A stretch of DNA of 64,000 nucleotides from an uncultured Bacilli bacterium. GTDB lineage: Bacteria > Bacillota_I > Bacilli_A > RF39 > UBA660. The notes below the pieces were generated by a model. The model did not search any database. It was given only the letters and a program-made list of their open reading frames with translations, and was not told the DNA's origin. Shown here in pieces: positions 1-20,163 of the stretch; within the stretch, counting starts at the first letter, position 1; each line of letters starts with the position of its first letter. The stretch spans positions 186,299 to 250,298 of the forward strand of contig CAKOWQ010000003.1 in assembly GCA_934122395.1 (NCBI GenBank), written 5' to 3'. Made by a program: the position numbers and the translations under genes.

Positions 1-680
1 TATCTGATATACATGATTTGTTAGCACTTAAAATAATGGTAGATGAAGTAGAAAATTGCTATAGAACATTATATTTAATACATAATGAGTATCATCCAAT
101 AAACGATAAATTTAAAGATTATATTTGTAATCCAAAAACAAATATGTATCAAAGCTTACATACAACAGTTTTTGGACCTGATGATAGGTTAGTACAAACA
201 CAAATTAGAACTTTTGATATGGATAAAGTGGCATCCTTTGGTTTGACTGCATACTGGGATGAACAAAAGGGAAAAGCAAGAGATGCAATGCAAGATGATT
301 TAAAACAAAAATTTCAATTTTTCAAATCATTAACAGAAATTAATTCCATGTTCGGAGATAATCAACAATTTGTAAATCAAGTAAAGACTGAATTATTTGC
401 GGACAAAGTTTATGTTTATACCACAAAGGGTGATATAATAGAATTGCCAAAAGGGGCTACACCAATAGATTTTGCATATAAAATACATACTGATATAGGA
501 AATACAATGGTAGGAGTATTTGTAAATGATGAGTTTGTACCAATAGATTATGCATTAAGAAACAAAGATAGAGTTAGAATTGTCACTGATGAATTATCTT
601 ATGGACCAAGAGAAGATTGGATAGATAAAGCTCAAACAAGTTTAGCAAAAAGAAAAATAAGAGAATTTAATAAAAAGTAG
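1..680 (+). CDS. rel: RelA/SpoT-family (p)ppGpp synthetase/hydrolase, 5'-partial at the window edge; ends about 50 aa after the TGS domain, so it is C-terminally truncated relative to a canonical Rel
   Basis: Synthetase-domain motif YQSLHTTV; TGS domain (VYVYTTKGDIIELPKGATPIDFAYKIHTDIGN...VNDEFVPIDYALRNKDRVRIVT); stop at 678-680 within the helical linker; no ACT/zinc-finger region follows. Confidence 0.85.
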   Translation, partial: SDIHDLLALKIMVDEVENCYRTLYLIHNEYHPINDKFKDYICNPKTNMYQSLHTTVFGPDDRLVQTQIRTFDMDKVASFGLTAYWDEQKGKARDAMQDDLKQKFQFFKSLTEINSMFGDNQQFVNQVKTELFADKVYVYTTKGDIIELPKGATPIDFAYKIHTDIGNTMVGVFVNDEFVPIDYALRNKDRVRIVTDELSYGPREDWIDKAQTSLAKRKIREFNKK

Positions 681-690
681 ACTGGAAGTA

Positions 691-1230
691 ATGAATGTGA
701 AAAGAAAATTTTCTAAGATTACAGAAACTAAATTTGTAAAAAAAGATATTATTTATCAAGATACAAAAGGAACGGTTTTTTGCATAAAATTTGATTCTAA
801 TATAACCCCTTCATTTGTTGAAGATGAAATACCTAAAATATGTATAAAAGATAAAGATTATATTTGGTTTGAATTTTATCCGAATGAAAAATCTTATTTA
901 TTAACTATAATGTTTGATGATAAACTAAATATTATTCAATGGTATTTTGATGTTTCCAAATTTGTTGAGTGTAACAATTGCATACCATATCAAGATGATT
1001 TATATCTAGATTTAGTTATTAAACCAACTGGGAAATTTAAAATACTTGATGAAGATGAATTGTATGAAGCATTACAAAAAAAAGAAATTACAATTGATGA
1101 ATTTAATTATGCATATGAAATATTAAATCAACTGATGAAAAAATTTGCTAATAATTATAATTACTTACTAAATTTAACTAACCATATCTTGAAGATGTTT
1201 GAGGAGGAAATAAAGAATGGAAAAATATAA
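691..1230 (+). CDS. DUF402-like (FomD/Ntdp-type nucleoside-diphosphatase fold) protein; assignment tentative
   Basis: 179 aa; C-terminal segment DLYLDLVIKPTGKFKILDEDELYEALQKKEITIDEF recalled as resembling DUF402 proteins; starts 11 nt after the rel stop with no terminator between. Confidence 0.4.
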   Translation: MNVKRKFSKITETKFVKKDIIYQDTKGTVFCIKFDSNITPSFVEDEIPKICIKDKDYIWFEFYPNEKSYLLTIMFDDKLNIIQWYFDVSKFVECNNCIPYQDDLYLDLVIKPTGKFKILDEDELYEALQKKEITIDEFNYAYEILNQLMKKFANNYNYLLNLTNHILKMFEEEIKNGKI

Positions 1231-2092
1231 TGGAAAATATGTAACTATAATGTTATGTTCACAATGTAATAATAATTGTAAACATTGCTATATAAGTTAT
1301 TCAGGAAGATTTGCTGATGAAGAATTATCAAGAATAATTCCAAATTTAAATGAAAAATATACAATTTTATTAAATGGTACAGAACCGATTATGTATCCTG
1401 AATATTATAAATATTTTAAAATGGTAAACGAACATAGAATAATAACAAACGGAATAACAATTCTTGAAAATCCAAATGTTTTGGATCAATTATCGGAAAA
1501 TGGAATTAATGAAGTTTGGCTTTCATACCATTTTGGTATTCAAAACGAAATATCAAGAATTAATGAAAATCAGTTAAATAATGTTATTCAGATTCTTAAA
1601 AAGAACAATTTTTTAGTAAAATTGATGTGTTCTTTATCAAAACATAATTATCAAAATGTTTCTAAATTCTGTGAAAGAGCATTAGAAATTGGAGCTGACA
1701 AAATAAAATTTACTAATTTTATTAGTCAAGGAAGTGCAAAAAGCAACTTTGATAACTCAGAATTTTTAAATCAAGAACAAATAAATTTTGTTTTGGAAGA
1801 AATAGAAAAAATGAGATCAATTATACCAAAGGAAGATTTGAATATACAAAGATGTGGAACATTTGGACCAAATATTCATAAAAACAATTTTCGATGTTTG
1901 GCTGGACAAGATATGATAGTTCTTACTCCAGATAGAAAACTATACAATTGTGTATTTAACATATCAAGTGATGATTGCATTGGATATATGGATAATGACT
2001 ATAATTTAATTATAAATTCAGAAGTTGCACCAATAAATCAATCATATTGTAAGGTACTAAAAAAACACAACGGAGTTGGAGGAATAAATTGA
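1217..2092 (+). CDS. Radical SAM enzyme with C-terminal SPASM/twitch-like Cys domain
   Basis: CxxxCxxC motif (CNNNCKHC) near the N-terminus; C-terminal CGTFGPN...FRCLAGQDMIVLTPDRKLYNCVF...DDCIGY resembles a SPASM/twitch auxiliary-cluster domain; overlaps neighbours on both sides (operonic). Confidence 0.75.
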   Translation: MEKYNGKYVTIMLCSQCNNNCKHCYISYSGRFADEELSRIIPNLNEKYTILLNGTEPIMYPEYYKYFKMVNEHRIITNGITILENPNVLDQLSENGINEVWLSYHFGIQNEISRINENQLNNVIQILKKNNFLVKLMCSLSKHNYQNVSKFCERALEIGADKIKFTNFISQGSAKSNFDNSEFLNQEQINFVLEEIEKMRSIIPKEDLNIQRCGTFGPNIHKNNFRCLAGQDMIVLTPDRKLYNCVFNISSDDCIGYMDNDYNLIINSEVAPINQSYCKVLKKHNGVGGIN

Positions 2093-3126
2093 AAATTTGT
2101 GGAAGAATTATAAATGTAAAACTAAAAACAAATGTATTGTTTTTATTGATTGAAAACAATAAAATCACACAAATAGTCATAAAAAATAATATTGAATATT
2201 TCTTAAATAATTTGAATGCTGGTGATATAGTTGAATGTCTCGTCACTAAAGATAGAAATAACAACGGAAAATATAAGCCAAAATATGATTCTTTTTTACT
2301 TAGAAGTCTAAAGATAATTAGTAAAAATAAAAAAAATTACAAATTAACATTAAATAAAACAAATATTATAAAATATAGTGATGTTAAATATGAAATAAGA
2401 AAATATTTACACAAATTAGGATATTTAGAAGTTACGTTGCCTATTTTAACTAATGGAGAAGTATCTTCAAAGTCAGAATCATTTTGTACTTTATATTCTA
2501 AGAAAAATATTAAATTATATTTGCGAAAAACTATGGACATATTTTTAAGAATGTATTCTTGTAGTGATTTTAATAAAATTTATTGTATAGGAAATTGCTA
2601 TAGAAATGAATATCTTACAAGTAAATATAAGCCAGAATTCGAAATGCTTTCCATCTTTAGCAATTATCTAAGTAAAAATAATGCAATAAAATTAGCTATA
2701 AAAATAATAAAAATTATAACTTCCAAGGATATTGAATGCAGTTTTATAGATGAAAAATCATATAATGAAATCACCCCGAGTGATAATACTTTTTATGTGA
2801 TAAATAATTATGCCAATTCTACAAATAGTTACTGTGATGTGCTTGAAAATGACAAAACAGATGAATTTAAAGTTAAATACAAAGGTGTTACCATTGTTCA
2901 TGGTGTAAGTGAAATATGCAATTATGATGAATATGTAAAAAAAATAGAGCTTCAAGGGAAAAAAGATGATTATGGTGAATTGCAAATTATTGAGAATTTA
3001 ATTGATTCTGGTGCTCCACAATGTTATAATCTGGGTATTAGTATAGTCAGACTTTTAAGTTTATATAATAATCTAAAAATTAAAGATTATGATATATTTT
3101 CATTTGATAGATTAGGAGAAATTTAA
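2089..3126 (+). CDS. Miniature class IIb aminoacyl-tRNA-synthetase paralog (LysRS/AsnRS-like; OB-fold N-domain plus truncated catalytic core); probable amino-acid ligase
   Basis: TTG start with GGAGG RBS. N-terminal OB-fold-like KICGRIINVKLKTNVLFLLIENNKITQIVIK. Class II motif 1-like LHKLGYLEVTLPIL, motif 2 YRNE...PEFEML (LysRS-like FRNE/PEF) and motif 3-like NLGISIVRLL. Only 345 aa, against about 450-500 for a true aaRS. Confidence 0.7.
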   Translation: MKICGRIINVKLKTNVLFLLIENNKITQIVIKNNIEYFLNNLNAGDIVECLVTKDRNNNGKYKPKYDSFLLRSLKIISKNKKNYKLTLNKTNIIKYSDVKYEIRKYLHKLGYLEVTLPILTNGEVSSKSESFCTLYSKKNIKLYLRKTMDIFLRMYSCSDFNKIYCIGNCYRNEYLTSKYKPEFEMLSIFSNYLSKNNAIKLAIKIIKIITSKDIECSFIDEKSYNEITPSDNTFYVINNYANSTNSYCDVLENDKTDEFKVKYKGVTIVHGVSEICNYDEYVKKIELQGKKDDYGELQIIENLIDSGAPQCYNLGISIVRLLSLYNNLKIKDYDIFSFDRLGEI

Positions 3127-4203
3127 ATGAAAGAAGAAATTGATTTAAAAAAACTAACAAAAGAATATTTAAAATCTTATTATTCTATTAATTCTTATAT
3201 AGGATGTACAATAAATTGTGGATACTGTTTTTTAGCACCAATTAAAATAGTTCCAATGCGTCCAATAAAAGTCATAGATGAAAAAGAATTGATACGTAAT
3301 ATGATTAATGACAATTATTTTGAAAAAGGTAAAACTGTTATATCTTTGAATAATAGAACAGACCCATTTATATCACAAGAAGTTAAAAATAGTACTTTTA
3401 AATTATTAGATATTATGGAAGAATTGAATCTTAAAAATATTGTTACAATAACATCAAAAGGTCTATTAACTGAAGAAGATGCAAAAAAATTAGATAGTTA
3501 TAATAATATTAAAATCGTTATTATTGTAACTTATAATGGAATCCCTTTAAAAATACAACCTATTAATAAAATAAATCAAGAAAATACTATGAAAAATGTT
3601 TCAAAATGTAAAAATGTTTATTTGTTGCATCAATTTAGGCCTATTATTCCTGGGGTAAATGATGATGAAAAAACAATTAGAGAAGTAGTTGATTTTGCTA
3701 AAAAGTATTGTGATGCAACGATTTTCCAAGGAATTAGAGTTAACGATTATATAAAAAATAGACTTGAAGAAAGAGAATACTTGTATAGTGGTACAGTTGG
3801 TGATTCACATAAACAAAAAAGTGCGAGTACGGACGCGATATTTGAACAACTAAGACTTGAAGATAAAAATTATCAAATTTTCGATCATACATCCTGTGCT
3901 TTAAGTTATATTTTTAAAACGGCAGATTATAACTTACATTATTCTAAAAATAATTGCTCTAAATTGTGTAAAAATTATGAATTATGTCATAACTTAAATT
4001 ATAAATTACCTGTAGACTTAGAAGGTAAACTAAGAAAAATTGGTGTTAATTCCAATTGGGAGCTAAGGGATAAAACTTTAATAATTGATGGTTCATTAAA
4101 TGATGAACAAAAATCTTATATTAAACATATATTGAATCTTAATGTGAAAGCTAAAATTAGGGAAAATACATATTCAGAAAAAATAATGGAGGGAAAAAAG
4201 TGA
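3127..4203 (+). CDS. Radical SAM enzyme, SPL/COG1533-like
   Basis: IGCTINCGYCF = CxxxCxYC cluster motif typical of the spore-photoproduct-lyase-like radical SAM group; GGAGAA RBS. Confidence 0.65.
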   Translation: MKEEIDLKKLTKEYLKSYYSINSYIGCTINCGYCFLAPIKIVPMRPIKVIDEKELIRNMINDNYFEKGKTVISLNNRTDPFISQEVKNSTFKLLDIMEELNLKNIVTITSKGLLTEEDAKKLDSYNNIKIVIIVTYNGIPLKIQPINKINQENTMKNVSKCKNVYLLHQFRPIIPGVNDDEKTIREVVDFAKKYCDATIFQGIRVNDYIKNRLEEREYLYSGTVGDSHKQKSASTDAIFEQLRLEDKNYQIFDHTSCALSYIFKTADYNLHYSKNNCSKLCKNYELCHNLNYKLPVDLEGKLRKIGVNSNWELRDKTLIIDGSLNDEQKSYIKHILNLNVKAKIRENTYSEKIMEGKK

Positions 4204-5474
4204 ATATAAAAATATTTTTTGATTTTCACGATGTATTTGTTGATGCAAAAAGCGCGTGGATTAAAGCATTAAAAGAAAAAACTAAATCAAATAAGGCAGA
4301 AATTGACTACAATAGAGGGTTATCAAAAAAAATAATATGCGAAAAATATAAATTAAATTATGAACAACTAGAAAAACTTTACAGAGTATATTTAAATCCA
4401 ATTAATGATAATATTGATTTTGCTGAAAAATTGAGTCAATCATATAAAATAAATATTTTATCTATGTCTAGAAAAGACAGATTACTTAAAGATATGCAAA
4501 AATTCAAACTTATTAATTTGTTTGATACGATAATCTCTAAAGAAGATATAATAGAATATAAAACAAAAGATGAATATTTAGTTTCTATTTCTTCTGATTA
4601 TGATTGGATTATATATTTTAATCATGAAAGTAATACTATTATTCAGAAAGATAATATTATTTATTTACCAGTAAATTTAAAAGGAGATTTATCTAAATTT
4701 AAAAATATTAGTTTTACTGAACATGCTAAAAACAAATTGCTATATAATGACTTATCTAAATATTATATGTATGCGATTGCTAATGATACTTCTTTGGAAA
4801 CAAACTTTTTATCAGAAATATATAAAAGATATAATTTGCCAACCGATGGAAAAATCCTTGATTGCTGTTGTGGTGTAGGACGACATGACTATTTACTTGC
4901 AAATGCTGGCTATCAGGTCACTGGAATCGATATTTCTAAAGAACAAATAACTAATGCAAAAAGAATTCATAATCATAAGAACATTGATTATCATGTTATG
5001 GATGTAAGGCATATTGATTTATTAGAAAAAAATTATGATATGTCAATTTGTATGTGGACAACTTACAATTATCTTTCCCAGGATAGTGATTTTGTAAGCT
5101 TTATCAAGTCAAATTATCAGCACCAACATAAAGGATCATTGATAGTATTAGATTCAAAAAACATTCCTAGATTAAATAATAGACGAGTTTATAAAAGAAA
5201 TAGTTCAACTGATAACGGAATAGAAATAGAACTAATTGTAAACAAATATATTATTAACAACATACAAAATTCACAATACCTATACTTTATAAAAGATAAA
5301 GACGATAAGAAATTTTATTTTGATGATGAATTCGTAAGATTTTATACTCTTGATGAAATTACAAAATTGGTAAATGAGTATTACGAAGTGGTAGATGTAT
5401 TTGGAGATTTTGATTTTAGTTCCTATGATAAAAAAATGAGTAATAGATTTATTGTGGTATTAAGGAGAAAGTAA
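4200..5474 (+). CDS. Two-domain protein: N-terminal HAD-like hydrolase fold (non-canonical motif I) fused to a class I SAM-dependent methyltransferase
   Basis: GTG start with GGAGGG RBS; HAD motif-III-like NLFDTIISKEDIIEYKTKDEY; MTase motif I ILDCCCGVGRHDYLLANAGYQVTGIDIS. Confidence 0.7.
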   Translation: MNIKIFFDFHDVFVDAKSAWIKALKEKTKSNKAEIDYNRGLSKKIICEKYKLNYEQLEKLYRVYLNPINDNIDFAEKLSQSYKINILSMSRKDRLLKDMQKFKLINLFDTIISKEDIIEYKTKDEYLVSISSDYDWIIYFNHESNTIIQKDNIIYLPVNLKGDLSKFKNISFTEHAKNKLLYNDLSKYYMYAIANDTSLETNFLSEIYKRYNLPTDGKILDCCCGVGRHDYLLANAGYQVTGIDISKEQITNAKRIHNHKNIDYHVMDVRHIDLLEKNYDMSICMWTTYNYLSQDSDFVSFIKSNYQHQHKGSLIVLDSKNIPRLNNRRVYKRNSSTDNGIEIELIVNKYIINNIQNSQYLYFIKDKDDKKFYFDDEFVRFYTLDEITKLVNEYYEVVDVFGDFDFSSYDKKMSNRFIVVLRRK

Positions 5475-5983
5475 TGAATAATGAATTAAAAAAATTAAAT
5501 TCATTATTTGATGGTAGTGATGAATCTGCTATGAATATTGCATATGACATTGCACATAAATATTCTTCTTGCAGATTATGTGGAGTTGGTAAAGGTGTTG
5601 GTGCAGTTATAATTAAAGATAATAAAATAATTTGTTATGGATATAATGGTATAATTGATAATATTAAACCATGCACTAAAGATAGTTGTCTAAGAATATC
5701 TAGAAATATTGAACATGGCACAAGAAGAGATGAATGTTATGGAGATTGTGCAGAAAAACGTGCATTCATTAATGCTTACCAAAATAATATAGACATAAAA
5801 AACTCAAAAATATATATTACAAAATCTCCTTGTGTATCATGCTGTAAATTACTAATTAATTTAGGAATAAAAGAAGTCATATATAATGAAATATATAGTA
5901 ATTCAGATTTTTCTTTTGAACTTTTAAATTTAGCTAGAATTAAATATAAAAAATTAGAAAATTTTTATAGAGATGATCATTAA
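5474..5983 (+). CDS. Cytidine/deoxycytidylate deaminase-fold (CDA) zinc enzyme
   Basis: CAEKRA (CAE zinc/catalytic motif) and SPCVSCCKLLINLGIKEVIY (PCxxC zinc motif); GGAGAA RBS; last gene of the 691-5983 operon. Confidence 0.8.
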   Translation: MNNELKKLNSLFDGSDESAMNIAYDIAHKYSSCRLCGVGKGVGAVIIKDNKIICYGYNGIIDNIKPCTKDSCLRISRNIEHGTRRDECYGDCAEKRAFINAYQNNIDIKNSKIYITKSPCVSCCKLLINLGIKEVIYNEIYSNSDFSFELLNLARIKYKKLENFYRDDH

Positions 5984-6059
5984 AATTTTAAATATATAAT
6001 TTTTTTTAAAAATAGTTGAAATTTTAAAAAAGAAATTGTAAAATAATAAATATGTTAAA

Positions 6060-6262
6060 TGTATTGATTGGGACACGGCTAATAACAATTATTTACAAAG
6101 CGAATTGTGGAAGGTGAAAGGCAATTAAATAACTTATTAGTTACTACCCATAAACAGGACTCGAAAGATGTTCCCGGTAATAGCCGTTATTAGTAATTAA
6201 GTTAAACCAAGGATGGTACCGTGTAATTCACTCCTGTTAGAATTTCTAGCAGGAGTTTTTAT
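6060..6262 (+). promoter_or_regulatory. T-box riboswitch leader (Thr specifier) controlling thrS
   Basis: T-box sequence AACCAAGGATGGTACCGTG at about 6205-6225; ACU-ACC threonine codons at about 6145-6150 (candidate specifier); terminator hairpin CACTCCTG...CAGGAGT plus U tract at 6229-6262; upstream promoter-like TTGAAA-17-TAAAAT around 6013-6043. Confidence 0.85.
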
Positions 6263-6279: not shown

Positions 6280-6465
6280 ATGAACGAAACAAAGAAAGAG
6301 TTAAAAAGACAATTATTTGAATTAAGATTAGCTCAAGCATTTTATATATCAGAACATAAAGAAGATAGTGAAGAAATAGTAAAAGATATTAAGGTATTGA
6401 AAAAGAAATATGCAAGAGTATTGCTTAATGAAAAAATGGGAGGAAAAGAAAATGATAAACATTAA
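6280..6465 (+). CDS. Small 61-aa ORF between the T-box terminator and thrS, overlapping the thrS start by 14 nt
   Basis: Strong RBS AGGGGG 8 nt upstream of ATG 6280; charged, helical, non-repetitive peptide; could be a translated leader peptide or a small protein. Confidence 0.35.
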   Translation: MNETKKELKRQLFELRLAQAFYISEHKEDSEEIVKDIKVLKKKYARVLLNEKMGGKENDKH

Positions 6466-8197
6466 AGAAGATGAAAAATTAAGTGTTATGAATCACTCAT
6501 GTGCTCATTTACTAGCACAAGCAGTAAAACATTTATATCCAAAAGCATTATTTTGGGTAGGACCTGTTATAGAAGATGGATTCTATTATGATATAGATTT
6601 AGGTGATGAATCTATTAATGATGAAGATTTAGCAAGAATTGAAAAAGAAATGAAGAAAATTGCTAAAGATGGAAAGAGAATTGTAAGAGAAGAAATAAGT
6701 AAAGAAGAAGCTTTAGAAAGATTTAAAAATGATCCATATAAAATAGATTTAATTTCTAGGATGGATGAAAATGATACAGTTATTTCTTGCTATACTCAGG
6801 GAGATTTTACTGACCTTTGTAGAGGACCACATCTTGAAAGTGTTAAAGAATTAAAGTATTTTAAATTACTCAAAGTAAGTGGTGCTTATTGGAAAGGTGA
6901 TTCTAATAACAAAATGCTTCAAAGAATTTATGGCATTTGTTTTGATAATGAAAATTCTTTAAGTGAATATTTGGCTTTTTTAGAAGAAGCTAAGAAAAGG
7001 GATCATAAAAAACTAGGTAAGGAATTAGATTTATTTATGATGAGTGAATATGGTCCAGGATTTCCTTTCTTCTTAAATAATGGAATGATTTTAAGAAATC
7101 AATTAGAAAATTTTTGGTATGAAGAACATACTAAAGAAGGGTATGAATTTGTTAAAACTCCAATTATGTTAAATAAAGAACTTTGGGAATTATCTGGACA
7201 CTGGTTTAATTATAGAGAAAATATGTATACAAGTGAAATTGATGATAAAGTATTTGCAATTAAACCTATGAACTGTCCTGGTGGAATGCTTGTATATAAA
7301 AATTCTCTTCATTCTTATAAAGATTTACCATTAAGAATCGGAGAATTAGGTCAAGTACATAGACATGAAGCAAGCGGAGCATTAAACGGTCTATTTAGAG
7401 TTAGAACATTTACGCAAGATGATGCTCATATATTTATGAGAGAAGATCAAATAGAAGAAGAAGTTATAAGATTAATTAACTTTATAGATAGAATGTATTC
7501 TATATTTGGATTAACTTATGATATTGAATTATCGACTAGACCAGAAGAAAAATATATTGGAAGTATTGAAATTTGGAATAAATCTGAAAAAGCTTTAGAA
7601 GAAGCATGTCATAGAGCAGGACATGATTGTAAAATAAATCCTGGTGATGGTGCTTTCTATGGACCTAAATTAGACTTTCATATTAAAGATTCTTTGGGTA
7701 GAGTATGGCAATGTGGAACAATTCAACTTGATATGAATTTACCAGAAAGATTTGATTTAACATATATTAGTTCTGATGGAAGTAAGAAAAGACCAGTTAT
7801 GTTACATCGCGTAATATATGGCTCAATTGAAAGATTTATTGGTATTTTAATTGAACATTATGCTGGAGCATTTCCACTTTGGCTTAGTCCAGTACAAGTA
7901 AATATTATTCCAGTTAATAATGAACTACATATGAATTATTGTAATGAAATTAAGAATTTACTTGAAGAAAATAATATTAGGGTTAAAGTTGATGCTAGAG
8001 ATGAAAAATTAGGATATAAAATGCGTGAAAGTCAAATCAAAAAAATACCTATAACTTTAATTATTGGAGATAATGAAGTTAATAAAAAACAAATTAGTTA
8101 TCGTAAATATGGAAATCAAGAAACTTATACTTGTGAAATTGATGAATTTATTAGTGAAATTAGTAAATGCTTAAAAGATAAAAAATATAATATTTAA
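6452..8197 (+). CDS. thrS: Threonyl-tRNA synthetase (lacks the N-terminal TGS domain)
   Basis: MINIK start with GGGAGG RBS; HSCAHLLAQAVK editing-domain motif at residue about 15; class II core and anticodon-binding domain; preceded by T-box. Confidence 0.9.
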   Translation: MINIKEDEKLSVMNHSCAHLLAQAVKHLYPKALFWVGPVIEDGFYYDIDLGDESINDEDLARIEKEMKKIAKDGKRIVREEISKEEALERFKNDPYKIDLISRMDENDTVISCYTQGDFTDLCRGPHLESVKELKYFKLLKVSGAYWKGDSNNKMLQRIYGICFDNENSLSEYLAFLEEAKKRDHKKLGKELDLFMMSEYGPGFPFFLNNGMILRNQLENFWYEEHTKEGYEFVKTPIMLNKELWELSGHWFNYRENMYTSEIDDKVFAIKPMNCPGGMLVYKNSLHSYKDLPLRIGELGQVHRHEASGALNGLFRVRTFTQDDAHIFMREDQIEEEVIRLINFIDRMYSIFGLTYDIELSTRPEEKYIGSIEIWNKSEKALEEACHRAGHDCKINPGDGAFYGPKLDFHIKDSLGRVWQCGTIQLDMNLPERFDLTYISSDGSKKRPVMLHRVIYGSIERFIGILIEHYAGAFPLWLSPVQVNIIPVNNELHMNYCNEIKNLLEENNIRVKVDARDEKLGYKMRESQIKKIPITLIIGDNEVNKKQISYRKYGNQETYTCEIDEFISEISKCLKDKKYNI

Positions 8198-8293: not shown

Positions 8294-8890
8294 ATGAAAA
8301 AAGATATTAAACATTATAAACAATCTGGAAACGCTTGTGCTATAGCATGTTTGTTAATGATTTTGGAGTATTATGATGTGATTACAAAAGCTAATTATGT
8401 TTATGAGAAAAAGTACTATAATTCATATTCTTCTCAATATTTATTAGGAGTTCCGTTATCAGCAGTATTTTGGCATTTAATAAAGAATAATATAAATGCT
8501 GAAATGTTTCATTCAGAAAAAAACTTGTTTTCTAATAATAAACAAATAATTGACAATAATATTTTTAATCTTGCAATTATTGAATATAAAGAGTATCTGG
8601 AATATGCAATTCTAAAAGGCGCCAAAGTATACAATGGTGTAAATATAAATATCGATTTAATACAAGAAAAGGTCAAAGACAATTTCATTATTCTTGCTGG
8701 GGTAATCAATCAGAATTTTCATACTATTTTAATTACTTCTTTTAAAAATGATTACTTTATAGTTAATAATCCTGCAGTTAATGTATCTACAAATATAGAA
8801 GGTGAAAAAGTTAATGAGTTTATGAATACTGATATTGGAAAATGGTTTATCGCAATACCAAAAGGAGAAGTCTATGAAAAAGAAATATGA
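8294..8890 (+). CDS. Peptidase C39-like (papain-fold) domain protein
   Basis: KQSGNACAIACLLMILEYY matches the C39 catalytic Cys region (Q...C-G/A-x-A-C-L-x-M-I). Confidence 0.5.
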   Translation: MKKDIKHYKQSGNACAIACLLMILEYYDVITKANYVYEKKYYNSYSSQYLLGVPLSAVFWHLIKNNINAEMFHSEKNLFSNNKQIIDNNIFNLAIIEYKEYLEYAILKGAKVYNGVNINIDLIQEKVKDNFIILAGVINQNFHTILITSFKNDYFIVNNPAVNVSTNIEGEKVNEFMNTDIGKWFIAIPKGEVYEKEI

Positions 8891-9569
8891 AGATGATAAT
8901 TATGTTATATATTATCCTGATGCTTTAGAGGAGTTTGTAAATGATATGATAATTTGTACTAAGGCACAGATAAATAATATATATACTTTCTTTAATGTAA
9001 AAAATCTTAGAAAAATTCAAGTTAATTTATTTGATAATATAGATGAATTTAGAAAATTTGTTATTGATTTGCGTAGTGGTGATGAAAAATCATTACCTCA
9101 GTATGCAAAGGGAACTTTTGATGATGGGATGATTAATGCTTATATTGAACCTAACTTCATTAAAACTTCTAGTCTTTATGAAAAAAGAAAACGCATGATG
9201 CTACATGAAACTGTTCATTTGATATATAATGAAATTCTTTTAATGAATAATTTTGATAATAGAGTAGTATGGCTTGATGAAGGCCTTGCTCAAAACTTAT
9301 CTTTAGAAGAAGAGAAAAATGATAAAAAAATTAAGCAAAGTATTATTTCTAACAATATAGCAATTGATATAAATGATTTGAGTCATGGGGATATTTTTAT
9401 TACTAGTGAATATAACGGTTATGATTTATCATATTTTGCAGTTAGATATTTATTAGATACTTTGAATAGTAAACAAATAATAGAAATTATAAAAGATAAA
9501 GATAAGGCAATTAAACTTGGTAAGACAATAATTATAGACGCAATTAATTTTTATAAAAGGAGAGTATAA
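8874..9569 (+). CDS. Zinc metallopeptidase-like protein (HExxH ... EGLA; Peptidase_MA_2-like)
   Basis: LHETVHLIY (HExxH) followed by WLDEGLAQ; start MKKKYEDD with AAGGAGAAG RBS, overlapping the upstream gene. Confidence 0.5.
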   Translation: MKKKYEDDNYVIYYPDALEEFVNDMIICTKAQINNIYTFFNVKNLRKIQVNLFDNIDEFRKFVIDLRSGDEKSLPQYAKGTFDDGMINAYIEPNFIKTSSLYEKRKRMMLHETVHLIYNEILLMNNFDNRVVWLDEGLAQNLSLEEEKNDKKIKQSIISNNIAIDINDLSHGDIFITSEYNGYDLSYFAVRYLLDTLNSKQIIEIIKDKDKAIKLGKTIIIDAINFYKRRV

Positions 9570-9570
9570 T

Positions 9571-10587
9571 ATGAAAGAATTTATAACTAATGATAATAAT
9601 TTAAAAGAAGAAGATGTAACTGAAATAGTAAAGAGAGTAAAAGTATTAATAATTAATTCAAGTAATGAAGTGTTACTAGGATATTCTCACAATGATTATC
9701 AATTCCCTGGGGGACATGTTGAAGATGGTGAAACTTTGTTAGATACTGTTAATAGAGAAGTTATGGAAGAAGTAGGGATTAACTTAAATGTTAAAGAACT
9801 AAAACCTTTTGCAAAGATGATAGGTTATTATAAAGATTGGCCAGCAATAGGGAAAAATAGAAAAATCGAAATATATTATTATGAAGTTAAAACTGATGAA
9901 AAACCTAACTTGGATAATTTGCAGTTAACTGAGTATGAAAAGGATGGGGGATTTTGTCTTAAATATATTCCTCTTGAAAATATAGAAGAAGAACTTATTA
10001 ATAATATCAATATATATAGTGATAAACATGGTATAACCAAAGAAATGTTAGAGGTGCTTGAGTATTATAAAAAAGAAAAAAGCAAACTAAAACTCGAAAA
10101 TTTGAAATGTGTAGATAATAATATTGATTTGGATAAATACATAAATTTTTATAATAAATTAAAAGCAACTATGGAAGATCCGTCATGGTTAGGAGATTTT
10201 ACTAAAACCGATATAGAATTTATACTAAATAATGGTGGTAAGATATGGATTTATTATTTAAATAATGATCCTGTTTGTTCTATGATGTATATTCCATCTT
10301 CTATAAAAAGTTGTCAAAAACTATTAGATGGTAAGTATGATTATAGAGAAGTTATAGATTATGGCCCTATGATGGTATGGTGCGATTATTTTGGTAATAG
10401 TCTTCAATATCAAATGTTAGAGGTATTAGATGAGTATTCAAGAAATAATGGCAAGAAATATGCTGTTAGCACAGTTCATCCTGATAATGTTTATTCTATT
10501 AATAATTTATTAAAAGATGATTTTAAACATATTGGTACTAAAACTTTTACTAGAGGAGAAAGAAATATATATTTCAAAGCACTTTAG
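9571..10587 (+). CDS. Nudix hydrolase domain fused to a C-terminal GNAT-like domain
   Basis: Nudix box GGHVEDGETLLDTVNREVMEEVGI; C-terminal about 150 aa has an acetyltransferase-like fold signature. Confidence 0.6.
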   Translation: MKEFITNDNNLKEEDVTEIVKRVKVLIINSSNEVLLGYSHNDYQFPGGHVEDGETLLDTVNREVMEEVGINLNVKELKPFAKMIGYYKDWPAIGKNRKIEIYYYEVKTDEKPNLDNLQLTEYEKDGGFCLKYIPLENIEEELINNINIYSDKHGITKEMLEVLEYYKKEKSKLKLENLKCVDNNIDLDKYINFYNKLKATMEDPSWLGDFTKTDIEFILNNGGKIWIYYLNNDPVCSMMYIPSSIKSCQKLLDGKYDYREVIDYGPMMVWCDYFGNSLQYQMLEVLDEYSRNNGKKYAVSTVHPDNVYSINNLLKDDFKHIGTKTFTRGERNIYFKAL

Positions 10588-12367: not shown

Positions 12368-14323
12368 ATGGAAAACTTTAAAATTAATGAAAAAAAATTA
12401 GAAGAATTAGATAATACATCTATTTCTAAAAAACAATTAACAGGGTATGCATCTATTGATACACCTTGGATGAAGTGGTATAACGAATCATTAAAAGATG
12501 TTGATTTTAAACATACTAACTGTTACGATTACTTTTTTGAAGTAACAAAAGAATTTAATTGGCCATTATGGGAATATTATGGTCGTAAATATACTGTTAA
12601 GGACATAAAGAAAGAAACGGATAAAATTATTAAAAAGTTAACAGCTATGGGTATTAAAGAAGGGGATACAGTATCATTTATATTCTTAAATGTACCTGAA
12701 ACTTTATTCTTCCATTTGGCATTATCTAAAATGGGAGCAATTACTAATTTAATTAAATTTGATGAACCTGCTGAACGTATTAAGTTCATGTGTGATTTAG
12801 CAAAATCTAGATATTTATTTGCAACAGAGATTCCACCTATTATAGATAATGTATTAGAAGCCTTAGATTTAGGTTGTGGTGTTGACCAAGTTATTTCTGT
12901 ACCGCTTACTGAAGCTATGCCTAAAGTTGCAGTATTAAACATGTTACATGAACAAAGTAAAAATAACATTCTAGAAGGTAAATCTACTGCTAATATATTG
13001 GTTGAAATGTCAAATCAATATAAAAGAACTCTTGAAATGCAAAAAAAATTGCAATCAAAGATTCTTACAAATCCACGTTTTATGACATATGATGATTGGA
13101 AGAAGAAATATAATGGGAATGACATGAATGTTATTACAGGTGGTGCTGATAACGTATCAGTTATTGTATATACTGGAGGTACTACTGGTAGTCCTAAAGG
13201 TGTAGAATTAACTAATGATAATTTAAATGCAAGTTCTCATGCTTTTACTAGAAGTGATATGGACTTTGATCCAAAAAGAACTTCTATGAGTATATTACCA
13301 CCATCAATTGCTTATTACTTCAATGCTACATACCAATTAATGTGTTGCGGTGTTAGTGTTAATTTGATTTCTAACTTTACTGTTCCAGAATATCCAAAAT
13401 TAATCGCTAAACATAAGCCTAATATATTTATGGCTGGTCCAATATTATTAAAAGAAATAGCAAAAGCTGATATTATGGATGATGTATCATTTATGATTGC
13501 ACCAATATCAGGTGGAGATAAATTAGAAGTATCTTTAGAGGAAGCATTTAATAATTACTTAAAAGAACATAATGGAGACACTATAGTTCGTCAAGGTTAT
13601 GGTTCAAGTGAATGTACTGCTGCTGCTACTTATATTAATAGACATGCAGCTAAATCAGATTGCCTTGGAAGTATTGGTATACCATTAATAGATATGACAG
13701 TTGCTATATTTGATTATATTCCATATGATGAATTCGATATGAATAATTTGGAAGAAAAGAAATATGGAGAAATAGGTGAGATTTGTATAACTGGACCTAC
13801 AGTAATGAAAGGTTATAGAGACAATCCTGAAGCAACTAATCAAGTGTTAAGAACGCATAAAGATGGTAAAGTATGGTTACATACTGATGACCTTGGATTT
13901 ATGGATGAGGATGGTAGAGTATACCACCGTGGTAGAGCTAAACGTATGCTTACAAGATCTGGTTCTAAAGTATGGTTATCACCTATAGAAGATGAGATTT
14001 CTAAACATCCAATGGTTGATGCTTGCTGTTGTGTTAAACTAGCTGATGAAGAAGAAAGTGAAGTTCCAGTAGCTCATATCGTATTAAAAGATGGTGCTTC
14101 ATTTGAAGAAGTTGCAAATGAATTGGATACCATGGTATCTAAAAATAATCCAGAAGTATATGTTCCAAAATATTATGTTAAACGTGATGAATTGCCAGTT
14201 ACAGAAGTCAACAAAAAAGTTAACTTTAGAGCATTAGAAAGTGAAGATATCTTTGATACCAAAGATTATTCAGTAAATGGTAAATTAATTACTAAGAAAA
14301 ACAAAGTAAAAGTTATGAAATAA
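12368..14323 (+). CDS. AMP-dependent synthetase/ligase (acyl-CoA synthetase-like adenylating enzyme)
   Basis: AMP-binding motif YTGGTTGSPKGV; 651 aa; GGGGG RBS. Confidence 0.8.
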   Translation: MENFKINEKKLEELDNTSISKKQLTGYASIDTPWMKWYNESLKDVDFKHTNCYDYFFEVTKEFNWPLWEYYGRKYTVKDIKKETDKIIKKLTAMGIKEGDTVSFIFLNVPETLFFHLALSKMGAITNLIKFDEPAERIKFMCDLAKSRYLFATEIPPIIDNVLEALDLGCGVDQVISVPLTEAMPKVAVLNMLHEQSKNNILEGKSTANILVEMSNQYKRTLEMQKKLQSKILTNPRFMTYDDWKKKYNGNDMNVITGGADNVSVIVYTGGTTGSPKGVELTNDNLNASSHAFTRSDMDFDPKRTSMSILPPSIAYYFNATYQLMCCGVSVNLISNFTVPEYPKLIAKHKPNIFMAGPILLKEIAKADIMDDVSFMIAPISGGDKLEVSLEEAFNNYLKEHNGDTIVRQGYGSSECTAAATYINRHAAKSDCLGSIGIPLIDMTVAIFDYIPYDEFDMNNLEEKKYGEIGEICITGPTVMKGYRDNPEATNQVLRTHKDGKVWLHTDDLGFMDEDGRVYHRGRAKRMLTRSGSKVWLSPIEDEISKHPMVDACCCVKLADEEESEVPVAHIVLKDGASFEEVANELDTMVSKNNPEVYVPKYYVKRDELPVTEVNKKVNFRALESEDIFDTKDYSVNGKLITKKNKVKVMK

Positions 14324-18021: not shown

Positions 18022-20163
18022 ATGAAGAAAAAGCTAGAAAATAATAATGTTAGAATAAGTTTATTCTTAGTTGTTATTGCTCTAGTTTTTTTTGTTTTGA
18101 TTATTGCAAGAACTGCTCAACTTGCTTTATCTAAGAAGATAGATGGAATTGATATACAGGAATTTGCTAGTAGTAGAACTACTAAAAATGAAATATTAAA
18201 GGGTAAAAGAGGTACTATTTATGATAAGAATGGAACTGCTCTTGCACAAAATGTTTCATCTTATACTTTAATAGCTTATTTATCATCATCTAGAACTACT
18301 GATATAAAACATCCTAAACATGTAGTTGATAAAGAATATACAGCAGAAATGTTGTCAACAGTACTTGATTTAAGTAAAGAACAATTATTACAGTATTTAT
18401 CGAAAGAAAATGTATATCAGACAGAGTTTGGTAGTAAGGGAAGAGGGTTAACTGAACTTACTAAAGATGCTATTCTAGCTTTAGGACTTCCTGGAATTGA
18501 TTTTATTGAAACACAAAAAAGATATTATCCTTATGGAGATTTTGCATCATATACTTTAGGTTATGCTAAAACTGAAATAACTGAAAAAGATGATGGAAGT
18601 AGTTCTGAAGCAATAGTAGGTGAAATGGGAATTGAAAAACAATTTGATGAAGAGTTAAAAGGAGAAGATGGTTATACTTTCTATCAAAAAGATAGAGCTG
18701 GTTATAAAATTGCTGGCACTAAAGAAGTAACGGTACCGGCTAAAGATGGTAAAGATGTATATTTAACGATCGATTCAAATATTCAATTGTTCCTGGAACG
18801 TGCTCTTGATAAGGCTGATTGGTATAATTTTGAATGGTCTACTATTCTAGTGGCAGATGCTAAGTCTGGTGCTATTCTAGCTTCATCTTCTAATCCGTCA
18901 TTTGATCCTAATTTAAGAAATATGACTAATTATATTAACTATAATACTAGTTATGCATATGAGCCAGGATCTACTATGAAAATATTCTCTTATATGGCAA
19001 CTATGGAAAATGGAAACTATAATGGTAGTGATACATATAAATCAGGTGTTTATGTAACAAAAGATGGTACTGAAATAGGCGATCATAATCGTAATGGTTG
19101 GGGAGAAATAACTTTTGATTATGGATTTACTTTATCTAGTAACGTAGCAGTTATTAACCTTATTAATAGATACATTAGTGGTGCAATATTAAAAACATAT
19201 TATAATAAACTTGGTTTTGGTTCTAAAACAGGAATAGAGCTACCAAATGAAGTTACAGGAAAAGTAGCTTTTAAATATGAAACGGAAATACTTAATGCTG
19301 GTTTTGGACAAGGGATTACTACAACTCCTATTCAAAATATTAAGGCACTTACTTCACTTACTAATAATGGAGTATTAATGCAACCATATATTGTTGATAA
19401 GATAGTTGATCCTGATACTAATGAAGTAGTATATCAAGGTGGTAAAAAAGAGCTTGATAAAGTTGCTAGTAAAGAGACTGTTGCTAAAATGAAAAATTTA
19501 ATGCGAACCGTTATAGAAGATCCTATGGGAACAGGTCATGGTTATTATATGGAAGGTTATGATTTAATAGCTAAAACAGGTACTGCACAGGTTGCTGATA
19601 AAAGTGGTTATGGTGGTAGTGTTATTCGTGGCTTTGCAGGACTATATCCAGGAAATGACCCTAGTATCATAATATATTATGCATCTAAAGATAATGGTTT
19701 AGGTGGTTTATATGCTATGAGAACAGTTATCAAGGATCTAATTGCAAATGTCAGTAAATATTTAGAACTAGATGGTAATAGTGTAGATAATACTACAGCT
19801 TTAAAGAATTATACAATGCCTTCTTTTATAAATAAAAATACTGTTGATGTTACAAATAAATTAACTAGTGAAGGATTAACTTATATAGTTATTGGTAATG
19901 GTAATAAAATAGTTAAACAATATCCAAGTGTTGATACTAAAGTATCTGAATTAGATAAAATTTTCTTAGTTACTAATGATAGTAATCTTGTTATGCCAAA
20001 TGTAATAGGTTATAGTATAAATGATGCTAAAGTTTTATTAAATCTATTAGGTATTAATCATTCTATAACTGGAAACGGTTATATAACTTCTCAAAGTATT
20101 GCATCAGGTGTAATTATAAAAAAAGAAGATATAGTCTCTTTAGAAGCTAATCCTAAGTTTTAA
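18022..20163 (+). CDS. Class B penicillin-binding protein (FtsI/PBP2B/SpoVD-like) with two C-terminal PASTA domains
   Basis: N-terminal TM; transpeptidase motifs (STMK-like S-T-M-K at GSTMKIF, SSN, KTGT); two PASTA repeats at the C-terminus. Confidence 0.85.
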   Translation: MKKKLENNNVRISLFLVVIALVFFVLIIARTAQLALSKKIDGIDIQEFASSRTTKNEILKGKRGTIYDKNGTALAQNVSSYTLIAYLSSSRTTDIKHPKHVVDKEYTAEMLSTVLDLSKEQLLQYLSKENVYQTEFGSKGRGLTELTKDAILALGLPGIDFIETQKRYYPYGDFASYTLGYAKTEITEKDDGSSSEAIVGEMGIEKQFDEELKGEDGYTFYQKDRAGYKIAGTKEVTVPAKDGKDVYLTIDSNIQLFLERALDKADWYNFEWSTILVADAKSGAILASSSNPSFDPNLRNMTNYINYNTSYAYEPGSTMKIFSYMATMENGNYNGSDTYKSGVYVTKDGTEIGDHNRNGWGEITFDYGFTLSSNVAVINLINRYISGAILKTYYNKLGFGSKTGIELPNEVTGKVAFKYETEILNAGFGQGITTTPIQNIKALTSLTNNGVLMQPYIVDKIVDPDTNEVVYQGGKKELDKVASKETVAKMKNLMRTVIEDPMGTGHGYYMEGYDLIAKTGTAQVADKSGYGGSVIRGFAGLYPGNDPSIIIYYASKDNGLGGLYAMRTVIKDLIANVSKYLELDGNSVDNTTALKNYTMPSFINKNTVDVTNKLTSEGLTYIVIGNGNKIVKQYPSVDTKVSELDKIFLVTNDSNLVMPNVIGYSINDAKVLLNLLGINHSITGNGYITSQSIASGVIIKKEDIVSLEANPKF

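Follow-up and report, generated by a model that had tools for sequence, protein, structure and literature searches.

The stretch of DNA analysed here (the window) comprises 64,000 nucleotides of contig CAKOWQ010000003.1 from an uncultured Bacilli bacterium, and between rel and a Thr T-box leader with thrS it holds six open reading frames (ORFs) on the plus strand, spanning positions 691–5983. The region is best explained as an accessory, horizontally mobile biosynthetic cassette rather than a housekeeping pathway. Its conserved core has four parts: a class IIb adenylate-forming ligase derived from LysRS, a radical S-adenosylmethionine (SAM) enzyme of the SPL fold (rSAM2), a HAD-fold hydrolase, and an amine-type SAM methyltransferase. 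In the lineage of the window, further genes join the core and encode a dCMP-deaminase-like enzyme, a DUF402 protein resembling nucleotide phosphohydrolases, and a second small radical-SAM enzyme (rSAM1). The four-gene cassette, with its LysRS look-alike, SPL-like radical-SAM enzyme, HAD hydrolase and methyltransferase, most likely builds an amino-acid-bearing nucleotide or nucleoside antimetabolite; housekeeping metabolism is unlikely. As a tentative first choice, somewhat short of an even chance, we propose a conflict-related pathway to an aminoacylated, N-methylated nucleotide or nucleoside analogue, in which neighbouring aminoacyl-tRNA synthetase (aaRS), peptidase and GNAT genes would provide self-protection.

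The six genes encode the DUF402 protein (691..1230, 179 aa), rSAM1 (1217..2092, 291 aa, cysteine motif CNNNCKHC), the ligase (2089..3126, 345 aa, TTG start), rSAM2 (3127..4203, 358 aa, CTINCGYC), a 424-aa fusion of a HAD-fold domain (residues ~1–165) with a class I SAM methyltransferase (~170–424; 4200..5474, GTG start), and a CDA-fold dCMP-deaminase-like enzyme with the zinc motifs CAE and PCVSC (5474..5983, 169 aa). An earlier reading of the sequence alone (the original prediction) had placed six overlapping or abutting ORFs here as one operon; the ORF listing reproduced its coordinates exactly, the junctions being, in order, overlaps of 14 and 4 nt, an abutting pair (0 nt), and overlaps of 4 and 1 nt, and co-transcription is very probable. 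Its domain calls (DUF402, two radical-SAM enzymes, a LysRS-like protein, HAD/methyltransferase, CDA deaminase) were all borne out by Pfam at the superfamily level. It had also stated that the set matches no housekeeping pathway, and the searches with Pfam, NCBIfam and PADLOC agree: none of the six proteins reaches a curated family cut-off in NCBIfam, Pfam-specific or PADLOC models, there is no specific PADLOC match, and the NCBIfam scores lie far below the cut-offs for LysRS (74.6 against 468 bits), EpmA (63.4 against 264) and ComEB (71.9 against 219).

The core genes recur together

A protein panel was mapped on 62 loci, cited below by number. The ligase, rSAM2 and the HAD domain, with or without fused methyltransferase, recur together in four gene orders in hosts of 24–51% GC, and rSAM2 with the methyltransferase reaches hosts of ~60% GC in a kinase-swapped form (clade Id). 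In clade Ia, to which the window belongs, the order is rel, DUF402, rSAM1, ligase, rSAM2, HAD-methyltransferase, deaminase, T-box and thrS, with sub-variants lacking DUF402 and the deaminase (L005) or lacking rSAM1 and having thrS upstream (L008). Clade Ib, from organisms of 51% GC (L032, L033), consists of ligase, rSAM2, HAD-methyltransferase and deaminase, and clade Ic (L016/17, L024/25, L036, L038-40) of rSAM2, HAD-methyltransferase, a 444-aa ligase and an S66 peptidase, sometimes followed by NUDIX. Clade Id (L013-15, L022/23, L034/35/37) has two small paralogous proteins, a thymidylate-kinase-like protein, rSAM2, and a methyltransferase without HAD. Clade II, in which rSAM2 is 25–33% identical, occurs with a ligase as rel followed by ligase, a B12-type radical-SAM enzyme, the rSAM2 counterpart, HAD and methyltransferase (L026, L048, L053, L061), and without a ligase but with an added P-loop kinase (L018, L049-L062).

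From these architectures, the functional unit is rSAM2 plus the methyltransferase (plus HAD) and an ATP-using partner, most often the LysRS paralog but in some loci a kinase. The deaminase, conserved in clades Ia and Ib, is a common add-on, and DUF402 and rSAM1 are local additions; DUF402 is found only in Ia loci and L008, and as a GNAT-DUF402 fusion in L003. Co-conservation of the whole gene set, as originally envisaged, thus held in part: the ligase, rSAM2 and HAD(-methyltransferase) recur together, whereas DUF402 and rSAM1 keep to the lineage of the window and the deaminase is lost or decayed in close relatives.

Variant Id is always preceded by an HSP70(-vWA) gene and a ~1100-aa P-loop protein resembling HerA/TraG (L013, 995–10042; L022, 403–10042), and also by two paralogous proteins of 193 and 199 aa without family matches. 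Together with these upstream genes, it may form a larger conflict system.

The ligase has an intact ATP site and an altered lysine pocket

The ligase matches Pfam tRNA-synt_2 (E 2.6e-26) and falls below the curated LysRS cut-offs on both NF001756 (74.6 against 468 bits) and TIGR00499 (68.2 against 427.6 bits); for comparison, the genuine LysRS adjoining the L052 cassette scores 561 and 515 bits on the same two models. EpmA is among the best NCBIfam matches, at 37.5 against 286.9 and 63.4 against 264 bits on the genX/EpmA models, and the match to the PylS model reaches only E 6e-4. A structure prediction built on a 22-member alignment (pLDDT 89) gave full-length class II LysRS as the best Foldseek matches, with both the OB and catalytic domains covered at TMq ~0.8. 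Profile and pairwise alignments showed that the protein is without the N-terminal helix of LysRS and the ~75-residue insertion after motif 2. Motif 2 is retained with unchanged loop length (R172-N173-E174...F184-E185), as are motif 3 (R321) and E259, and K11, F18, Q28, R172-N173-E174, F184, E259, E275 and R321 are invariant in the family. The statement in the original prediction that the paralog keeps an OB fold and the class II motifs therefore stands for the fold, which is that of full-length LysRS, and for motifs 2 and 3.

The substrate pocket was compared with that of LysU. D150 is the acidic residue at the alpha-amine position, is invariant, and is the equivalent of LysU E240. In the LysU numbering that we assume, E278, Y280 and E428 are taken as the ligands of the lysine epsilon-amine and E421 as a Mg ligand. 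E428 is retained as E275, and E278, Y280, E421 and N424 are replaced by S188, F190, T268 and H271, all invariant. With the ATP-site motifs intact and the lysine side-chain pocket altered, the protein looks like a working adenylate-forming enzyme whose substrate is other than plain lysine. Motifs 2 and 3 and an OB domain with an R/K-F-Q triad are LysRS-like features, and we rejected the identity of a housekeeping class II LysRS (LysS) on the curated scores far below cut-off and the replacement of the epsilon-amine ligands E278/Y280 and the Mg ligand E421. The analogy with EpmA/EpmB (PoxA/YjeK, EF-P beta-lysylation) in the original prediction was likewise dropped. A LysRS paralog gene adjoins a radical-SAM gene in both cases, but EpmA consists of the catalytic domain only, without an anticodon-binding domain, whereas the cassette ligase has an OB domain, has lost the lysine side-chain ligands, and is accompanied by no KamA-type (PLP lysine 2,3-aminomutase) partner.

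Among 22 family members, the only invariant residues of the OB domain are K11, F18, Q28 and D46. The first three align with an Arg-Phe-Gln triad of human LysRS, in which R136, F144 and Q155 contact the anticodon bases U35/U36 (PMC11643047), and they are kept as R/K-F-Q in the L016- and L026-type paralogs at 19–35% identity. Because this anticodon-binding triad is invariant, a tRNA-directed function remains a serious rival, doubtful but with a real chance of being correct, and the tRNA role suggested originally is kept in play. The LysRS paralog would bind a tRNA whose anticodon contains U35/U36 (Lys, Asn or Asp type) and either charge it with a non-canonical, lysine-derived, N-methylated amino acid made by the radical-SAM enzyme and methyltransferase, or contribute to its hypermodification, the radical-SAM enzyme and N-methyltransferase acting much as MnmL/MnmM do at xm5U34 and base aminoacylation resembling that by GluQRS. 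A radical-SAM enzyme paired with a class I N-methyltransferase on the wobble uridine has precedent in MnmL/MnmM, and NCBIfam has a model named MnmL/YtqA. This explanation accounts for the triad and D46 as the sole invariant OB residues, for the full two-domain architecture and the motif-2 loop length, and for genuine LysRS genes beside clade II cassettes; it needs no exporter, and the E278-to-S and Y280-to-F changes would fit a lysine with an alkylated amine. However, no tRNA gene was found in the window, nor next to the cassette in any of 45 loci, neither rSAM2 nor the methyltransferase carries a tRNA-binding domain (THUMP, PUA, TRAM), and in some variants a nucleotide-kinase-like protein replaces the ligase. 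The accessory genes are also of deoxynucleotide type (dCMP deaminase, DUF402 and NUDIX, with ThyA-like and NDK genes in relatives), and a dispensable, mobile cassette would be unusual for core tRNA modification.

Charging could also serve a different end. A mobile translation-rewiring module, in which the ligase loads a lysine-derived non-canonical amino acid made by the radical-SAM enzyme and methyltransferase onto an existing tRNA (Lys, Asn or Asp type), is in our judgement quite improbable. The amino acid would then either be incorporated throughout the proteome or yield a poisoned aminoacyl-tRNA that serves as a weapon, with the genuine neighbouring aaRS buffering the host. Pyrrolysine-type code expansion was rejected because no dedicated tRNA gene occurs in the window or the 45 loci; the PylS match noted above is marginal.

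rSAM2 and its wider superfamily

rSAM2 is the most conserved protein in the cassette. It matches Radical_SAM, with the CX3CX2C motif as CTINCGYC, and its invariant features are CX3CX2C, NNRTDPF, RPI...ND, HTSC, a small C-terminal alpha/beta domain, and three or four further cysteines (C257, C277, C281, C287) that cluster in the C-terminal part; these cysteines suggest a second metal or Fe-S site, which rSAM2 probably carries. The protein has an SPL-type fold around the CX3CX2C core, and its identity to SPL is 11%. SplB membership was rejected, as the curated SplB/COG1533-type families (PA0069, Rv2578c, mobile pair B) were not reached (best scores 20.4 against 410 and 19.8 against 360 bits). 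A sequence search of the PDB gave no match, nor did any PADLOC model, viperin models included. The family comprises 83 clusters, and among 1.84 billion sequences, 160, 490 and 856 representatives were found at E<=1e-30, E<=1e-10 and E<=1e-3, respectively. Searches of phage records and IMG/VR with rSAM2 and its distant clades returned no matches, and those with the ligase returned LysRS-type partial matches only.

More distant relatives point to conflict. Relatives of rSAM2 on plasmids (~26% identical) have a DEDDh exonuclease and an AAA_28 kinase as neighbours, joined in some cases by an HD protein or by ThyA-like and NDK genes. Some of these relatives are part of defence islands that also contain Shedu, ABC-three-component, HEPN/Toprim and PIN(-XRE) genes. 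Members of the superfamily are fused to TIR, Nuc_deoxyrib_tr (nucleoside 2-deoxyribosyltransferase-like), NTP_transferase, GT2 and TCAD9-APH domains. From this context we infer that rSAM2 belongs to nucleotide-centred conflict systems. The fused distant members are P0190, P0206, P0208, P0176, P0254 and P0270; to our knowledge, fusions of such members with TIR, Nuc_deoxyrib_tr-like, TCAD9 plus APH, or NTP_transferase domains are uncharacterised.

The same context bears on intracellular anti-phage defence, an unlikely alternative that shares the chemistry of the proposed conflict pathway and differs in use and target. A viperin-like modified (deoxy)nucleotide would poison viral replication or transcription, or pyrimidine pools would be depleted or altered, and the ligase would act as a sensor or an extra tailoring step. 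The defence-island relatives (with Shedu, ABC-three-component, HEPN/Toprim and PIN-XRE genes, or beside a DEDDh exonuclease, kinase and HD protein), the TIR and TCAD9 fusions, the absence of an exporter, and the kinase of variant Id, which matches the PADLOC model of VakA (viperin-associated kinase) at E 3.2e-10, are all consistent with it. So are the weak matches of the deaminase to anti-phage dCTP-deaminase models, and the finding that, among organisms whose rel is 66–85% identical to that of the window, the spot after rel is taken by a clade I cassette in some and a clade II cassette in others, which looks like hotspot-type turnover. Against defence stand the lack of PADLOC matches for both rSAM2 and the ligase, a stable place beside thrS over deep divergence, which is atypical of defence genes, and the absence of an obvious sensor or regulator; the MccF-like and GNAT partners are better explained by toxin immunity. 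Among known defence systems, prokaryotic viperin (pVip) and VakA resemble the cassette in pairing a radical-SAM enzyme with a nucleotide kinase and in having relatives in defence islands, the Id kinase matching VakA. The identity of pVip itself was rejected, since rSAM1 is far below the viperin models (16 against 180 bits in NCBIfam; 27.8 bits in PADLOC) and rSAM2 has no match. The Ophion radical-SAM defence system differs in its partners, PHP and PRTase.

HAD-methyltransferase and accessory enzymes

The fusion protein matches HAD_2 and Methyltransf_25/11/31. Its methyltransferase half is very conserved, and the nearest solved relatives are small-molecule amine N-methyltransferases, including PEAMT, CalS10 and glycine/sarcosine N-methyltransferases, together with TylM1/DesVI-type dTDP-aminosugar N,N-dimethyltransferases; in PADLOC, it gave only a generic or sub-threshold match (mad2). 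The HAD half carries FDFHD(I/V)FV, that is, D-x-H in place of D-x-D, in all seven of the HAD-bearing sequences. HAD and methyltransferase are separate genes in clade II, and HAD is missing from variant Id.

The deaminase matches dCMP_cyt_deam_1 (E 7.5e-16, 58.3 bits), and its best PDB match is the dCMP deaminase of S. mutans (E 2.7e-16). Its score against ComEB is 71.9 against 219 bits, and its first zinc motif is CAE, not HAE. The identity of an anti-phage dCTP deaminase was rejected: the score against NF041025 is 52.6 against 400 bits, and the PADLOC dCTPase match is limited to the ~50-residue zinc-motif region, so the architecture with a kinase-like N-terminal part is not reached. The DUF402 protein scores 46.8 bits in Pfam (cut-off 23.9) and weakly matches FomD and S. 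aureus SA1684/Ntdp, making it a candidate nucleoside di- or triphosphatase or nucleotide-conjugate hydrolase.

rSAM1 gave a generic Radical_SAM match and weak MoaA-, NirJ-, BlsE- and viperin-type matches, a generic similarity to small nucleotide- or sugar-acting radical-SAM enzymes; its best PDB sequence match, BlsE, is uninformative (E 0.045). Its family comprises only 35 clusters. The original prediction had assigned it a SPASM/twitch domain, which no model shows; SPASM-family enzymes match weakly (E 1e-9 to 1e-5), far below their cut-offs.

Homologues of rSAM1 occur in other aaRS-linked settings. Locus L064 (4219–9091), syntenic with the window cassette in lying upstream of an acyl-AMP ligase and a hybrid kinase, has an rSAM1 homologue and two tandem TyrRS genes, as well as a metallophosphoesterase and a GNAT, and genes for a carbamoyltransferase and a ROK kinase precede this group. 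The locus may represent another kind of aaRS-linked cassette. Another rSAM1 homologue adjoins a class I aaRS-like gene (L063).

Mobility, decay and dispensability

The cassette is accessory and sometimes mobile in gut Firmicutes. In L003, an 11-kb insertion interrupts a peroxiredoxin gene at the active-site motif (GDFTPV / CTTE): the upstream part (7937–8098) ends in ...FSHPGDFTPVIY and a stop, and (V)DFTPVCTTE... resumes at 19136 (19136–19699). A 17-nt direct repeat flanks the insert at each junction, with a large serine recombinase at its boundary, and the insert carries as cargo an HTH protein, an HD-like protein, the ligase, rSAM2, HAD, the deaminase, a T-box, thrS and the GNAT-DUF402 fusion. 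L016/L017 have the same layout, with the recombinase at the right end, and L033 has a resolvase after the deaminase. The absence of mobile-element genes in the original prediction is thus true within the window and misleading for the family, whose relatives lie on serine-recombinase elements.

Loss and decay were also found. A single 241-aa ORF in L010 (9998–10723) joins ligase residues ~143–225 to the C-terminal ~150 residues of rSAM2 and is an in-frame deletion remnant. The L007 cassette is frameshifted, and the deaminase is absent in L005 and present only as fragments in L008/L009. These deletions, frameshifts, decay and integrative elements in relatives mark the cassette as accessory, mobile and dispensable. 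As a side observation, L010 comes from an Oscillospiraceae-labelled metagenome-assembled genome with asnS and asnA just upstream of the remnant and an intact HAD-methyltransferase, deaminase and thrS downstream.

This pattern weighs on a further explanation, ordinary metabolism, which we consider very improbable: the genes would serve nucleotide salvage and an amino-acid or cofactor pathway in a gut Firmicute with a small genome and lie by chance between rel and thrS, or the six genes are not one unit. In its favour, the window has no mobile genes, GC content does not differ between cassette and flanks, core genes surround the cassette (rel, thrS and then mraZ/mraW/PBP), and the core shows no co-conservation with DUF402, rSAM1 or the deaminase. 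It is opposed by the deletion and decay in relatives and carriage on integrative elements, by the failure of all six proteins to reach a curated equivalog, and by the rarity of the ligase family, which amounts to ~34 clusters at 42–97% identity in 5.8 billion proteins and, among 185,579 GTDB species representatives, two intact copies and one remnant.

Recurrent neighbours and known pathways

The proposed conflict pathway draws on the genes that accompany the core. thrS adjoins every Ia-type locus, on either side, and is co-mobile with the cassette in L003. Class I LysRS adjoins the clade II cassettes L048, L053 and L055, and class II LysRS adjoins L052 (above the cut-off) and L047 (divergent). 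An S66 (MccF/LdcA-family) peptidase gene overlaps the ligase gene in two different genomic contexts, an S51 peptidase lies 3' of clade II cassettes, a GNAT occurs in L016 and, fused to DUF402, in L003, and NUDIX is recurrent. The S66, S51, GNAT and NUDIX partners resemble known immunity genes for aminoacyl-nucleotides. These partners, together with the kinase swaps, TIR fusions and defence-island relatives, lend weight to the aminoacyl-nucleoside and nucleotide-conflict roles among those suggested originally.

In L055 (4694–6712), the class I LysRS has a C-terminal Trbp111/CsaA-type tRNA-binding domain and lies directly upstream of the clade II cassette, which consists there of the B12-type radical-SAM enzyme, the rSAM2 counterpart, HAD and methyltransferase.

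The pathway and immunity logic of albomycin, ascamycin, puromycin and microcin C provides a precedent, and aaRS paralogs and resistant aaRS copies occur in the albomycin and ascamycin clusters. The cassette resembles the pathways of the albomycin nucleoside (SB-217452) and other aminoacyl-nucleoside aaRS inhibitors in combining radical-SAM remodelling of a pyrimidine nucleoside with a methyltransferase for a base or amine, an aaRS paralog that supplies or attaches the amino acid, and nucleotide phosphohydrolases. A further likeness concerns protection of the producer, for which an aaRS copy at the same locus, an MccF-type peptidase or a GNAT is responsible; such partners are seen here as well. 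The likeness to the Abm, Acm, Mcc and Pur systems is one of enzyme inventory and logic. Unlike in aminoacyl-nucleoside pathways, the cassette ligase is LysRS-derived with an anticodon-type OB domain; unlike albomycin- and microcin-type systems, the cassette has no siderophore, peptide carrier or exporter, and its hosts are uncultured low-GC gut Firmicutes. A microcin C-type identity was rejected, there being no ThiF-type (MccB) domain among the six proteins, and MccF-like S66 and GNAT proteins only in relatives.

Two further systems are instructive. In thmABC of Photorhabdus, a radical-SAM enzyme, a nucleoside kinase and a nucleoside triphosphatase yield 4'-thiothymidine, with the triphosphatase conferring self-resistance (PMC12691670). 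By gene inventory, it resembles the kinase variants here (thymidylate-kinase-like protein, rSAM2 and methyltransferase), and its resistance gene parallels a possible protective role of DUF402 and NUDIX; it differs in having no ligase, HAD or methyltransferase. In phage M6, gp53 is an SPL-like radical-SAM isomerase that acts on glycinyl-thymidine, a conjugate of amino acid and nucleobase (PMC8989533). The likeness to M6 thymidine hypermodification lies in an SPL-like radical-SAM enzyme acting on an amino-acid–pyrimidine conjugate; M6 also has a 5-HMUDK kinase, an amino-acid transferase and a dCMP deaminase, and a comparable supporting cast is spread over the cassette variants (dCMP deaminase, ThyA-like enzyme, dNMP kinase, nucleotidases, acetyltransferases). 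The difference is that the cassette has no aGPT-Pplase, and the amino acid would be activated by the aaRS paralog rather than displaced onto a pyrophosphorylated base. Phage thymidine hypermodification itself was rejected, as none of the six proteins has a 5-HMUDK or aGPT-Pplase Pfam match and the family is absent from phage and viral collections. A published description of the cassette gene set was not found in the literature, nor was a curated model or defence catalogue entry.

Genomic setting and regulation

The 3' part of rel, a short RSH gene, occupies 18..680 (+) of the window, ending 10 nt before the first cassette gene. The original prediction took rel to be truncated; it is cut by the window edge only, and the complete gene, identified with its Pfam domains from L001/L002, encodes 480 aa in L001 (7150–8592) with HD_4, HD, RelA_SpoT and TGS. 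No C-terminal regulatory-domain family such as ACT is among the matches listed for it. A simple terminator scan found no terminator from rel to 6230, in line with the original prediction that none follows rel. Most likely, the six genes are transcribed together with rel, which is probably the promoter-proximal gene of the transcript.

The T-box announced in the original prediction is real. Downstream of the deaminase, a promoter-like site (6016–6044, +) precedes a Thr T-box leader (6055–6238, +; 62.9 bits, E 2.6e-13 in Rfam, E-value mode), whose specifier at ~6143–6146 we read as ACU followed by A, that is, Thr. The terminator scan placed the T-box terminator at 6230–6256 (+), and thrS follows at 6452..8197 (+; 581 aa with the start as called in L001), without a TGS domain, as a persistent neighbour of window-type cassettes. 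With its own promoter-like site, T-box and terminator, thrS is under separate control. A whole-window Rfam search at gathering score reported no RNA family, because the T-box scores 62.9 bits against a gathering score of 93; the very AT-rich T-boxes of the clade seem to be systematically under-called. In 14 other loci, no riboswitch or T-box was found upstream of the cassette, the sole one found being the T-box (13312–13507, 78.6 bits) that precedes the element-borne thrS of L003.

Several features around thrS were observed in passing. Its product is without an N-terminal TGS in the window, L005 and L010 (581–595 aa), and the element-borne thrS of L003 (13560–15476, 638 aa) has the domain. Between the T-box terminator and thrS lies a 61-aa ORF (6280–6465) with a strong GGGGG Shine-Dalgarno sequence; it overlaps the longest thrS reading frame and is called as a gene in L001/L002 (56–61 aa). 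Its likeness by eye to uL29 was dropped, since there is no Pfam match. Positions 8294–10587, 3' of thrS, hold a C39_2-like peptidase and an MA_2-like metallopeptidase in overlapping ORFs and a 338-aa NUDIX protein, and a NUDIX fragment also lies 3' of the cassette in L003.

Further downstream in the window are the acyl-AMP ligase, the hybrid kinase and an mraZ-mraW-PBP cluster. The cassette region is a core chromosomal stretch; its host, a low-GC Firmicute with a cell wall, has been met in gut metagenomes alone. GC content is 21–28% in the cluster and in the flanks alike, so there is no compositional island.

Proposed pathway and significance

In the conflict pathway that we tentatively favour, one or both radical-SAM enzymes would remodel a (deoxy)pyrimidine or adenine nucleotide, DUF402 and HAD would trim phosphates, and the deaminase would convert or supply the base. 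The ligase would activate an amino acid other than plain lysine as an acyl-adenylate and join it to the nucleoside or nucleotide, and the methyltransferase would N-methylate an amine. This would yield an analogue of aminoacyl-nucleoside or aminoacyl-nucleotide type, comparable to the albomycin nucleoside, puromycin, ascamycin or processed microcin C, for use against competitors or phage. The producer would be protected by genes that accompany the cassette in one lineage or another: T-box-controlled thrS, LysRS of either class, MccF-like S66 or S51 peptidases, GNAT, NUDIX and DUF402.

Several points weigh against this proposal. The main unexplained fact is the anticodon-type triad: K/R-F-Q, the class IIb contact to U35/U36, is kept in all three divergent ligase clades, and a free-nucleoside acceptor leaves it unaccounted for. 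Unrelated roles in the cell wall and in metabolism also exist for the S66, S51 and GNAT families, and thrS with its ordinary Thr T-box may simply be a housekeeping copy. The cassette has no conserved exporter, a point against a secreted antibiotic; rSAM2 is matched by no PADLOC model, and the cassette family is on no phage or viral contig. Each chemical step also rests on inference.

In summary, the core is well defined and small (~3.4 kb). What is new is the combination of enzymes, and the kind of system would be an aminoacyl-nucleoside or nucleotide-analogue conflict pathway, with a small chance of something categorically new at the tRNA level. If tRNA is the target, the cassette would represent a new tRNA-directed or code-altering system, and translation rewiring would be a new way of altering the genetic code in nature that needs no tRNA of its own. 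If the conflict pathway is correct, a compact, mobile pathway to an aminoacyl-nucleoside or aminoacyl-nucleotide antimetabolite exists in uncultured low-GC Firmicutes from the guts of humans and animals, and the set of enzymes behind it is unprecedented: a LysRS paralog with an anticodon-type domain, an SPL-fold radical-SAM enzyme and a HAD-N-methyltransferase. It would then add a new function for aaRS paralogs and a new activity for the small SPL-like radical-SAM superfamily, and its product would be a candidate for a natural inhibitor of ThrRS or LysRS, with the resistance genes already part of the pathway.

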